NCBI RefSeq assembly: GCF_003790525.1
Contig: NZ_CP033635.1
Reading direction: 5' to 3' (one strand)
DNA length: 64,000 bases
Source: Escherichia coli
GTDB taxonomy: Bacteria > Pseudomonadota > Gammaproteobacteria > Enterobacterales > Enterobacteriaceae
The position numbers were made by a program, and so were the translations under genes. A model generated the notes under the pieces. That model had not been told where the DNA came from and made no database searches. It was given only the letters and a program-made list of their open reading frames with translations. Shown piece by piece: positions 29,966-32,268 of the stretch (position 1 is its first letter; every line of letters starts with the position of its first letter).

Positions 29966-30490
29966 GTGTTGGATAAACTGCGTTCCCGTATTGTGCATTT
30001 GGGGCCATCTCTGTTGAGTGTACCGGTAAAACTGACGCCATTTGCGCTAAAACGCCAGGTTCTTGAGCAGGTCTTAAGCTGGCAATTCCGCCAGGCGTTG
30101 GATGATGGCGAGCTGGAGTTTCTTGAAGGCCGCTGGTTAAGTATTCATGTGCGTGATATTGACCTGCAATGGTTTACCTCGGTGGTGAATGGCAAACTGG
30201 TCGTTAGCCAGAACGCGCAAGCTGATGTGAGTTTTAGTGCCGACGCCAGCGATCTGCTGATGATTGCGGCGCGTAAACAAGATCCGGATACGCTCTTCTT
30301 CCAACGTCGGCTGGTGATTGAAGGCGATACGGAGCTGGGGTTATATGTGAAAAACCTGATGGACGCCATTGAACTGGAGCAAATGCCGAAAGCCTTACGC
30401 ATGATGCTGCTGCAACTGGCGGATTTTGTTGAGGCGGGAATGAAAACCGCGCCTGAAACCAAACAGACATCGGTAGGTGAACCATGCTAA
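29966..30490 (+). CDS. ubiT: SCP2-domain lipid-binding protein UbiT (YhbT)
   Basis: ORF (V/M)LDKLRSRIVHLGPSLLSVPVKLTPFALKRQVLEQVLSW...; GTG 29966 preceded by GGAG 7 nt upstream gives 174 aa; ORF also extends in frame to TTG 29942. Confidence 0.78.
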   Translation: MLDKLRSRIVHLGPSLLSVPVKLTPFALKRQVLEQVLSWQFRQALDDGELEFLEGRWLSIHVRDIDLQWFTSVVNGKLVVSQNAQADVSFSADASDLLMIAARKQDPDTLFFQRRLVIEGDTELGLYVKNLMDAIELEQMPKALRMMLLQLADFVEAGMKTAPETKQTSVGEPC

Positions 30491-30987
30491 TTCGAGTAGA
30501 AATTCCCATTGATGCGCCGGGTATTGATGCCCTGCTGCGTCGTTCATTCGAAAGTGATGCGGAAGCGAAGCTGGTTCACGATCTGCGTGAAGATGGCTTT
30601 CTGACGCTGGGGCTGGTGGCGACAGATGACGAAGGTCAGGTCATTGGCTATGTGGCATTTAGTCCGGTTGATGTGCAGGGCGAAGACCTGCAATGGGTCG
30701 GCATGGCACCGCTGGCGGTAGATGAAAAATACCGTGGACAGGGGCTGGCACGCCAACTGGTCTATGAAGGACTCGATTCGCTTAATGAGTTCGGCTATGC
30801 CGCAGTGGTGACGCTGGGCGATCCGGCGCTGTACAGCCGTTTCGGCTTTGAACTGGCGGCACATCACGATCTGCGTTGCCGCTGGCCGGGCACTGAAAGT
30901 GCCTTCCAGGTACATCGTTTAGCGGATGACGCGCTGAACGGTGTAACTGGTCTGGTTGAGTATCACGAGCACTTCAATCGCTTTTAA
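30484..30987 (+). CDS. yhbS: GNAT-family N-acetyltransferase
   Basis: 167-aa [44 protein letters not shown]...; overlaps ubiT stop by 7 nt. Confidence 0.88.
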
Positions 30988-31276
30988 TCTTTGGGGTTTG
31001 CAGGCTGCTCAACAGTTCTGCAAACCCTGCGCCTTCCGCTACCAGACGCTCTTTTTGCCGTTTGGTCAGTTGCTTAACGCGATATTCCGCCCGTAGTGCC
31101 AGCGAACGATCGCCCACTGGCGCGGAAAACGCCAGCGTCAGTTCTCCTTTCCCGCGCAGTGCTTTCGCCCCTTTGCCGCTTTGGTGCTGCTGATAGCGGC
31201 GTTCGACATCTGTGGTGATCCCGGTATAAAGCTTATTGTCGGCGGTACGGATCAAGTAAAGAAACCAGGGTGTCAT
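30974..31276 (-). CDS. yhbQ: GIY-YIG domain protein (putative endonuclease)
   Basis: 100-aa [47 protein letters not shown]...; 3' end overlaps yhbS 3' end by 14 nt (convergent). Confidence 0.88.
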
Positions 31277-31326
31277 CGTCTGCGTCGCATGTTAAGGTCA
31301 GGCCCACAGTATAAAAGAGAACAGCA

Positions 31327-31770
31327 ATGGAAACACTCACCGCCATCAGCCGTTGGCTGGCAAAACAACATGTTGTCACCTGGTGTGTGCAGCAGGAAGG
31401 GGAACTGTGGTGCGCTAATGCCTTTTATCTTTTTGATGCGCAGAAAGTCGCCTTCTACATTTTGACGGAAGAAAAAACGCGCCACGCGCAGATGAGTGGG
31501 CCGCAGGCGGCAGTTGCCGGAACGGTAAACGGTCAGCCGAAAACGGTAGCGTTAATTCGCGGCGTGCAATTTAAAGGCGAGATCCGCAGGCTTGAAGGTG
31601 AGGAAAGCGAGCGTGCGCGCCAGGCGTACAATCGTCGCTTTCCGGTTGCCAGAATGCTGTCGGCACCGGTGTGGGAAATCCGGCTTGATGAAATCAAATT
31701 CACCGACAACACGCTGGGCTTTGGTAAAAAAATGATCTGGCTACGTAACTCAGGCACCGAGCAGGCGTAA
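31327..31770 (+). CDS. yhbP: PNPOx-like FMN-binding family protein
   Basis: 147-aa [53 protein letters not shown]... Confidence 0.88.
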
Positions 31771-32268
31771 TGCCTCGCGGTTAAACGCTGGCAGATCGTC
31801 CGGTGTACGGCTGGTAACCAGCTGATCTTTATCGACCACCACTTCCTGATCGTAAAATTCCGCGCCCGCGTTTTTAACATCAATAATGATCGGTTTAACG
31901 GCAGTCAGTTTGCGCCCCCGAATCACATCGGCGCTGATCAGCAGCTGCGGACCGTGACAGATGGCGAAAACAGGTTTGCCGCTATTCACAAAATCGCGGG
32001 TGAAGGTGACAAAACGGTTGTCGCCACGCAGATAATCCGGTGAATGGCCGCCCGGTAGCAGCAGGGCATCGAACTCTGCGGGCGTCACTTCATCGATGGA
32101 TTTATCGATGGCCACGCTGGCTTCTCCTTTTTTGCCTTTCACCGTTTTACCCGCTTGTTTTTCAATGGTAATCACTTCGTGTCCGGCTTTACGGAACTCG
32201 TCTGCGGGTGAAGTAAATTCTGAATCCTCAAATTCATCACTGATTAAAACGGCAATTTTCTTACTCAT
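31750..32268 (-). CDS. yhbO: DJ-1/PfpI-family protein (deglycase/stress protein)
   Basis: ORF from ATG at 32268 [36 protein letters not shown]..., 172 aa, conserved Cys in AICHGPQLL; 3' end overlaps yhbP 3' end by 21 nt. Confidence 0.88.

Follow-up and report, generated by a model that had tools for sequence, protein, structure and literature searches.

How do two pairs of convergent genes come to share their last codons, and where do transcripts end that run into each other's coding sequence? The question is raised by the yhbS, yhbQ, yhbP and yhbO genes, which lie directly after ubiT in a 64,000-nucleotide stretch of Escherichia coli DNA (contig NZ_CP033635.1 of assembly GCF_003790525.1; the window below) and whose order, taken from the open reading frame (ORF) listing and the sequence, is ubiT-yhbS → ← yhbQ ↔ yhbP → ← yhbO. 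The explanation that we consider probable is that the coding sequences (CDSs) came to overlap passively once the spacers between them had been lost, that transcription reads through each stop, and that Rho terminates the antisense RNA so made, with a 3′ stem-loop possibly lying in the ORF of the neighbour. The genes and overlaps are as follows, with the basis of each assignment in brackets.

29966-30490, + strand: ubiT, an SCP2-domain accessory factor of anaerobic ubiquinone synthesis and first gene of its operon (RefSeq, Pfam SCP2)
30484-30490, + strand: same-strand overlap of ubiT and yhbS, 7 nucleotides (nt), ATGCTAA (sequence)
30484-30987, + strand: yhbS (= hqbA), a GNAT acetyltransferase that binds Hfq (ORF listing, Pfam, PMC10710024)
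30974-30987: convergent CDS overlap of yhbS and yhbQ, 14 nt (ORF listing, sequence)
30974-31276, − strand: yhbQ, whose product has a nuclease domain of GIY-YIG (Slx1/URI) type and a C-terminal tail that varies (Pfam PF01541)
31277-31326: divergent yhbQ-yhbP spacer, 50 nt (sequence)
31327-31770, + strand: yhbP, a split-barrel (PNPOx/HugZ-like) protein of uncharacterised function (NCBIfam NF002900, AlphaFold, Foldseek)
31750-31770: convergent CDS overlap of yhbP and yhbO, 21 nt, codon-for-codon antisense (ORF listing, sequence)
31750-32268, − strand: yhbO, a DJ-1/PfpI deglycase/stress protein, RpoS-dependent (Pfam, PMC2907692)

Origin of the two overlaps

An earlier note on this DNA had placed a 14-nt overlap between yhbS (+) and yhbQ (−) and a 21-nt overlap between yhbP (+) and yhbO (−), and both are borne out by the ORFs, the sequence and RefSeq. 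The RefSeq limits of all four genes are identical in E. coli SMS-3-5, in which the region is 100% identical to the window, and the K-12 annotation carries the same 14- and 21-nt overlaps. Misannotation accounts for many of the long overlaps recorded in databases (PMC2478687), and one ORF of each pair might likewise have been miscalled and the overlap be unreal; such an artefact is extremely improbable and was rejected, because the 3′ ends are set by unambiguous stop codons and not by the choice of a start. Moreover, the overlaps are short, family or domain support extends nearly to the C-terminus in all four proteins, and convergent overlaps are the class least hit by misannotation (PMC2478687).

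The overlaps were compared across 80 species-level Enterobacteriaceae loci anchored on YhbP, in which the genes were placed by tblastn and the matches extended to the stop. Of 79 loci, 76 have a yhbS/yhbQ overlap of 14 nt; in the other three, all from Citrobacter, it is 4 nt after an indel of a single nt, and lengths of 22, 14 and 17 nt were found in more distant Enterobacterales. The yhbQ stop, which reads TCA on the + strand, is always antisense of a conserved Phe-Asn of YhbS encoded by TTY-AAY, the contained TYA being the antisense of TRA; either form, TCA or TTA, is an antisense stop and leaves the Phe of YhbS unchanged. The C-terminus of YhbS (...EYHEHFNRF) is conserved, with a value of 0.86 for the last 10 residues versus 0.88 elsewhere, whereas the last 10 residues of YhbQ reach 0.53 versus 0.86 elsewhere and its last 25 residues 53-58%. 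YhbQ varies from 92 to 100 amino acids across the loci, and the sequence of its tail is variable too.

The same asymmetry, an unconserved extension in one partner and a conserved terminus in the other, was found in the second pair. The yhbP/yhbO overlap is 21 nt long in 37 loci, and 14 loci have a shorter one of 15 nt. The stop of yhbP is a TAA that lies antisense to TTA, a Leu codon within the highly conserved YhbO terminus, and the switch from 21 to 15 nt results from a YhbO-synonymous change of CTG to CTA or TTA that makes an earlier yhbP stop. Conservation of the last 10 residues is 0.96 in YhbO (0.88 elsewhere) and 0.48 in YhbP (0.82 elsewhere), the last 7 residues of YhbP being poorly conserved. 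Alignments with distant YhbP homologues stop at about residue 140, and YhbP has 140-142 amino acids where yhbO is absent, the extension thus being missing without the convergent partner. In the AlphaFold model of YhbP, the predicted local distance difference test (pLDDT) score is 95 overall and 65 in the last block, with residues 141-147 at low confidence. Together, the alignments and the model indicate that residues 141-147 are a dispensable tail.

The observations can be put into one sequence of events. The DNA between the convergent 3′ ends would have been lost, each CDS overlap being a passive by-product of that loss. The C-termini of yhbS and yhbO would be functionally constrained, while yhbQ and yhbP would have lost their own stops and extended through dispensable tails, to halt at the first antisense stop in the conserved end of the partner (Phe-Asn TTY-AAY giving TRA; Leu TTA/CTA giving TAA/TAG). 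Convergent overlaps formed through stop-codon loss or 3′ extension were reportedly described by Rogozin et al. in 2002. Like the overlaps of this kind (PMC4161906, PMC2478687), the present ones are short and tail-to-tail, with one partner conserved and the extension of the other unconserved, and orthologues without the partner also lack the extension; they differ in that two pairs stand back to back and that the yhbS/yhbQ overlap is unusually persistent across Enterobacterales.

The cluster was found in 5,424 of 5,426 complete E. coli genomes and is a compact set of core-genome genes of the species. Seven convergent junctions occur in the annotated 50 kb of the window, and CDSs overlap only at these two, the gaps at the others being 49-221 nt. 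In E. coli as a whole, 75 convergent pairs of CDSs overlap (PMC4161906). By our rough estimate, chance would be expected to yield one or two alternating clusters with a double overlap in each genome. Because of this expectation, the existence of the cluster is not statistically remarkable, and the arrangement is uncommon, not anomalous; its conservation across Enterobacterales exceeds the average.

Read-through and the 3′ ends of the transcripts

Because the CDSs overlap, complementary transcripts are unavoidable if both genes of a pair are transcribed to their stops. The complementary ends predicted in the earlier note are found in published RNA-seq data: yhbO-yhbP and yhbQ-yhbS are named among 165 convergent excludons of MG1655 (ExcludonFinder Table 1, PMC12288877), a listing that reflects transcript overlap in at least 50% of 58 MG1655 samples. 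Both pairs have the convergent, tail-to-tail, adjacent and opposite-strand arrangement of a convergent excludon. The earlier note would have been refuted by transcripts that end short of the overlap; the published transcripts do not, and that of the yhbP strand reads past it (PMC12288877, PMC7815308). The pairs share with the other excludons of the list their overlapping transcripts and a short, here negative, intergenic distance; the listing was made from coverage only, and here the CDSs overlap, not just untranslated regions.

On the yhbP strand, a Rho-dependent (bicyclomycin-sensitive) termination region antisense to yhbO has been reported at K-12 position 3299102 (−), with a score of 4.79 and p = 2.7e-9 (PMC7815308), and its peak falls about 370 nt past the yhbP stop, deep inside antisense yhbO. 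Past each of the four stops, the C/G ratio of the RNA is 1.2-2.4. Being antisense to the ORF of the neighbour, this RNA is untranslated and, since it is also richer in C than in G, a classic Rho substrate. As no terminator fits between the genes, RNA polymerase would pass each stop into the antisense of the neighbour, and Rho would end the untranslated RNA some hundreds of nucleotides further on, which for the three strands other than that of yhbP we infer. Rho-dependent transcripts typically end just past stable stem-loops without U-tracts, with rut sites downstream (PMC6061677); the 3′ ends in this cluster would probably be trimmed to such U-less stem-loops in the ORF of the neighbour, at 30994-31027 for yhbS and 31643-31602 for yhbO, and the outcome would be pairs of mRNAs with complementary 3′ regions, or convergent excludons. 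The cluster resembles the described cases in its bicyclomycin-sensitive region antisense to yhbO (PMC6061677, PMC7815308) and in having stem-loops free of U-tracts shortly past the yhbS and yhbO stops, followed by RNA with more C than G (PMC6061677). It differs in that the candidate stem-loops lie inside a convergent CDS and are formed in part from synonymous sites or from a dispensable tail. The elements that bear on the 3′ ends are listed below.

30994-31027: perfect inverted repeat of 10 base pairs, GGGTTTGCAG/CTGCAAACCC, 7 nt past the yhbS stop, in codons of the YhbQ tail
31602-31643, − strand: hairpin GGAAAGCGA...UCGCUUUCC, 107-148 nt past the yhbO stop, in yhbP codons 92-106, without a U-tract
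31726-31732, − strand: run of seven U (U7) in yhbO-sense RNA, 18-24 nt past the yhbO stop, preceded by a weak bulged stem
31808-31834, + strand: terminator-like hairpin CGGCTGGTAACCAGCTG plus AUCUUUAUCG, 38 nt past the yhbP stop, in yhbO codons (DQLVTSR)
about 32140, + strand: equivalent of the Rho region peak at K-12 3299102 (−), by indel-free alignment to NC_000913.3

Neither the consensus scan nor folding detected a stem-loop within either CDS overlap, and the consensus terminator scan found nothing for three of the four gene ends and only the weak hairpin after yhbP. No Term-seq 3′ end lies at the K-12 equivalent of this hairpin, 31808-31834 (PMC7815308), and the segment directly after the yhbP stop (P+0) has a mean folding z score of only −0.94 across the loci. 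The U7 run is encoded by conserved Gly-Lys-Lys codons of YhbP, is often interrupted in other genera, and is a weak intrinsic terminator at best. The suggestion of the earlier note that bidirectional termination might be shared within the overlaps finds no support: no hairpin lies there, the nearest hairpins carry no U-tract on either strand, and the Term-seq tables of PMC7815308 give no 3′ end in the cluster; a shared intrinsic terminator inside the overlaps was rejected because these contain neither a stem nor U-tracts.

The stem at 30994-31027 lacks a U-tract on either strand, its flanks being UGCGCCUUCC (+) and CAAAGAUUAAAAGC (−). As a hairpin it has a z score of −3.4 in the window. Across 78 loci, the 70 nt past the yhbS stop have a mean z of −1.96, half of the loci falling below −2, and the means 80 and 160 nt further on are −0.23 and −0.49. 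Pairing in the helix reaches 72%, compared with 36-52% for slid controls, and one GC↔CG pair covaries. In Morganella morganii, a canonical terminator with a stem of 12 base pairs and a U-run is found inside yhbQ, about 35-70 nt past the yhbS stop (L085:3102-3140). Judged by sequence comparison, 30994-31027 is a candidate 3′ stem-loop of the ubiT-yhbS mRNA.

Overlapping bidirectional terminators at convergent genes were reportedly described by Ju et al. in 2019. The position of the palindrome, 20 nt upstream of the yhbQ stop and 7 nt from that of yhbS, would suit a bidirectional intrinsic terminator common to both genes, or an element for programmed collision, that stops both polymerases at each junction. 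The palindrome can fold into an identical stem from either strand, and neither strand is preferred across species, but the E. coli stem has no U-tract on either strand and its T-rich flank is on the wrong side. The Morganella terminator, though embedded in yhbQ, is unidirectional. Nascent-RNA stem-loops are known to position head-on collisions at bidirectional terminators (bioRxiv 10.1101/2022.10.23.513370), and the palindromic stem-loop at the yhbS/yhbQ boundary resembles that system; it differs in lacking flanking A/U-tracts and mapped coincident 3′ ends, none of which appear in the Term-seq tables, and the yhbP/yhbO overlap has no comparable element, only the weak unidirectional hairpin 38 nt downstream. 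As the yhbP strand also continues for about 370 nt to a Rho-dependent end (PMC7815308), we consider such an element highly unlikely.

The helix at 31602-31643 was compared between loci with and without yhbO. In the 55 loci with yhbO, 88.6% of the helix cells pair (77% Watson-Crick), and by the asymmetry of G·U and C·A pairs 36 sequences pair better as yhbO-sense RNA and 2 as yhbP mRNA. In the 25 loci without yhbO, pairing falls to 68.4% (54.5% Watson-Crick) and the strand asymmetry is gone (5 versus 8). Along yhbP, the contrast in folding z between loci with and without yhbO, −1.87, is confined to the 31602-31643 segment. The element is thus a candidate protective 3′ stem-loop of the yhbO mRNA, as far as alignments can tell; these observations on embedded hairpins are new and tentative.

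The complementary 3′ ends could also be regulatory excludons maintained by selection, in which transcription of one gene represses the convergent partner through collision of RNA polymerases, RNase III cleavage of the duplex, or both, so that induction of ubiT-yhbS by Fnr under anaerobiosis would shut down yhbQ, and induction of yhbO by RpoS in stationary phase would shut down yhbP. Mutual interference, which the earlier note had raised, is plausible. The excludome as published includes both pairs and is a class with higher synteny and less single-cell co-expression (PMC12288877), and the partners have different and strong condition-specific drivers, Fnr for ubiT-yhbS and RpoS for yhbO; the literature, however, yielded no expression data specific to either pair, and capture of double-stranded RNA with p19 failed to validate convergent excludons (ExcludonFinder, PMC12288877). 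Since yhbO was lost repeatedly while the rest of the cluster is unchanged, yhbP does not need yhbO. The overlap lengths also drift (4, 14, 17 and 22 nt in one pair; 15, 21 and 39 nt in the other), YhbQ and YhbP are least conserved in the very tails that overlap, and in one distant locus a gap of 33 nt separates yhbP from a DJ-1/PfpI gene. We therefore consider selected excludons unlikely.

Several results weigh against passive overlap followed by Rho termination. The yhbS/yhbQ overlap is greater than zero in all of the ~82 loci examined, Morganella included, and never reopens across several Enterobacterales families, a persistence that also speaks for selected excludons. Gene overlaps are reported to turn over fast (PMC4161906), so that a persistence beyond this turnover could indicate selection instead of a neutral ratchet. 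Rho dependence has been published for one of the four strands, that of yhbP, and in 800-nt windows (PMC7815308), and the tables of the same study give no Term-seq 3′ end within K-12 3299000-3300299, where low expression could hide ends. For the yhbS-side hairpin, RNAalifold returned no consensus structure and the strand-asymmetry test was null. The hairpin at 31602-31643 is not significantly stable in the sequence of this window (z −0.86), and perhaps four or five independent lineages underlie the contrast between loci with and without yhbO. The yhb genes go unmentioned in the SMRT-Cappable-seq supplements.

Conserved core and variable neighbours

A word-indexed protein search with YhbP returned only close relatives, and an exhaustive representative search reached Morganella, Rahnella and contexts outside the enterobacteria. 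Morganella has ubiVU, ubiT-yhbS converging on yhbQ with a 22-nt overlap, and yhbP converging on nrdG, in the absence of yhbO, with a 20-nt overlap (L085:4437-4456). One distant locus (L087), with neither ubiT nor yhbO, has a yhbS-like gene overlapping yhbQ by 14 nt and yhbP overlapping a ridA-like gene by 4 nt; in another, a GNAT gene and a GIY-YIG gene overlap by 17 nt and are followed by yhbP, the 33-nt gap and the DJ-1/PfpI gene. The yhbS-yhbQ-yhbP trio stands without ubiT in two distant loci, which probably belong to Enterobacterales, and Rahnella keeps the divergent yhbQ-yhbP pair. Beyond Enterobacterales, YhbP homologues lie in unrelated gene neighbourhoods. Because the distant loci vary in ubiT and yhbO, the conserved core is yhbS → ← yhbQ ↔ yhbP, and the ties to yhbO and ubiT are secondary; yhbP overlaps whichever gene converges on it. 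The co-occurrence of all four genes, which the earlier note had taken up, is partial: yhbS, yhbQ and yhbP are found together across Enterobacterales, and yhbO is the gene that can be missing.

The yhbO gene is absent in 25 of the 80 loci, namely those of E. albertii, E. whittamii, the Citrobacter freundii complex, Kluyvera and Trabulsiella, where yhbP stops near residue 140-142 and yraR comes next. The yhbO segment is also missing from 107 (~2%) of the 5,424 complete E. coli genomes that have the cluster. They include the Nissle-derived EcN_Sk, and in them a yhbP of 140 amino acids (...KKLVWQR*) is followed by yraR 40 nt on (L095:3428-3900; L006; window equivalent 31750-32395). The junction of the yhbO-less E. 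coli (cggTAAcctatagttaaacatgag...) is the E. whittamii allele, and a CTATAGTTA motif is common to it and the yhbO-less C. freundii complex. Because the allele and motif are shared in this way, the absence of yhbO in E. coli suggests an old allele that spread by recombination, not many independent deletions. In two Escherichia loci, E. coli SCPM-O-B-8794 (L002) and Escherichia sp. MOD1-EC7003 (L005), a 7-nt deletion (ccggTGTACGGctgg to ccggctgg, at about 31797-31803 of the window) frameshifts the 3′ end of yhbO, a further decay of the gene. In the window, the starts of yhbO and yraR are 127 nt apart.

The gap between yhbQ and yhbP is 49-55 nt in 77 of 78 loci. A further possibility is that the cluster consists of two interleaved, non-contiguous operons, ubiT-yhbS running on through antisense yhbQ into yhbP and yhbO running on through antisense yhbP into yhbQ, with each strand co-expressed internally and the two mutually opposed. 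A scan for the sigma-70 consensus found no promoter in the 50-nt spacer, so independent promoters are not obvious, yet the spacer has conserved −10-like elements (TATAAA/TAGCAT) and a Shine-Dalgarno-like GAGA. The alternating layout is conserved and strong terminators are lacking between genes of the same strand; on the other hand, the intervening antisense RNA is C-rich and untranslated, hence a Rho substrate, and yhbQ and yhbP are kept with the same spacer without yhbO, and are also kept in the loci without ubiT. Only three non-contiguous operons have been reported in MG1655, this cluster not being one of them (PMC12288877). We judge interleaved operons very improbable. With a spacer of 50 nt, the promoters of yhbQ and yhbP must overlap each other or sit within the ORF of the neighbour.

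A near-perfect palindrome, ATGTTAAGGTG-N4-CACCTTAGCAT, occupies the spacer in 27 of the 78 distinct sequences (L040, L039 and L029 among them), where 8 or more of its 10 positions pair; Silvania, Lelliottia, Enterobacter, Superficieibacter and Kosakonia are examples of its carriers. It overlaps −10-like hexamers that face both directions. In Escherichia, and likewise in this window, it is degenerate, with 5-6 paired positions of 10. From its sequence, it could be an operator or the core of a bidirectional promoter.

The place of the cluster after ubiT, called unexplained in the earlier note, is explained in part. By reverse-transcription PCR, ubiT-yhbS is a single, Fnr-induced transcription unit, within which ubiT contains a second promoter; YhbS, for which the new name HqbA was given, is an Hfq binder and plays no part in ubiquinone synthesis (PMC10470549, PMC10710024). 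All evaluable Enterobacteriaceae loci have a ubiT/yhbS overlap of 7 nt, save one for which 8 nt were computed; the overlap is present in Morganella too, and translational coupling of the two genes is probable. The genes described in the two papers (Arias-Cartin et al. 2023, PMC10470549; PNAS 2023, PMC10710024) are identical with those of the window, and neither paper discusses the 3′ overlap with yhbQ or the end of the transcript.

Fnr and YbcM sites have been reported in the ubiU-ubiT spacer. The sole match of an Rfam scan over 29800-32600 lies in this divergent spacer, a CRISPR-DR22 match at 29898-29934 (−) with 21.9 bits against a gathering score of 50 and an E value of 0.22. It was rejected, since a palindromic regulatory region most likely gives this match by chance.

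The family assignments of the earlier note are supported by Pfam for three of the proteins, GNAT (YhbS), GIY-YIG (YhbQ) and DJ-1/PfpI (YhbO) passing the gathering score. In YhbQ, PF01541 spans residues 4-76, and the PDB relatives are 1zg2 and 1ywl. YhbP matches the NCBIfam 'YhbP family' (NF002900), and its PNPOx-like character is supported by the modelled fold and not by the sequence threshold, the match to PNPOx_N (PF01243) having an E value of 0.062, under the Pfam cut-off. Foldseek with the YhbP model returned split-barrel matches with a probability of 1.0 and a template modelling (TM) score of about 0.7. The top matches include the heme-binding or heme-degrading MSMEG_6519, ChuZ, HugZ and HutZ as much as PNPOx-like FMN binders. 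Going by the model, the split-barrel fold is confirmed and FMN as the ligand is not; because heme-type split barrels match equally well, the K-12 product label 'putative FMN binding protein' appears insecure.

The description of all four proteins as stress-associated is documented for yhbO, which shows 231-fold RpoS dependence in EDL933 (PMC2907692). For yhbQ it rests on the RefSeq product name only, and for yhbP it is undocumented, a literature search having found essentially no published work on this gene. Outside Enterobacterales, homologues of YhbP lie directly 3′ of a PF02441 Flavoprotein (UbiX/Pad1-like) gene on two unrelated contigs, and on one further contig between nifQ and apbE in a nif cluster (L092, L093, L083 set), which hints at a flavin- or cofactor-related role.

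Elsewhere in the window, lpoA and yraN overlap on the same strand by 43 nt at about 35452-35494 (L096 28154-28196 in the RefSeq annotation). For genes that run in one direction the overlap is long, and the choice of start codon may be its cause.

Meaning of the overlaps for gene packing

As first stated, the observation adds little, the overlaps being in every annotation, the transcripts of both pairs catalogued as excludons and the operon published. What the comparison provides is a worked example of how a convergent overlap originates and persists, the conserved last codons of one gene giving the other its stop.

A bolder extension, which we regard as doubtful, is that the CDS of the neighbour has been recruited for the 3′ signal of the dominant gene and that, together with Fnr- and RpoS-driven read-through, this forms a selected two-way antisense switch, setting ubiT-yhbS against yhbQ and yhbO against yhbP. 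The yhbO stem-loop would be drawn from synonymous sites of yhbP codons 92-106 and decay on loss of yhbO, and the ubiT-yhbS stem-loop would be drawn from the free tail of YhbQ. Any regulatory consequence of the overlaps is likewise conjectural.

The comparison of natural deletions suggests that the RNA structure at a 3′ end can constrain synonymous sites in the convergent neighbour. If true, this would bear on the interpretation of synonymous-site conservation, and deleting or recoding yhbP or yhbQ could destabilise the yhbO or hqbA mRNA, a point of relevance to tightly packed regions.

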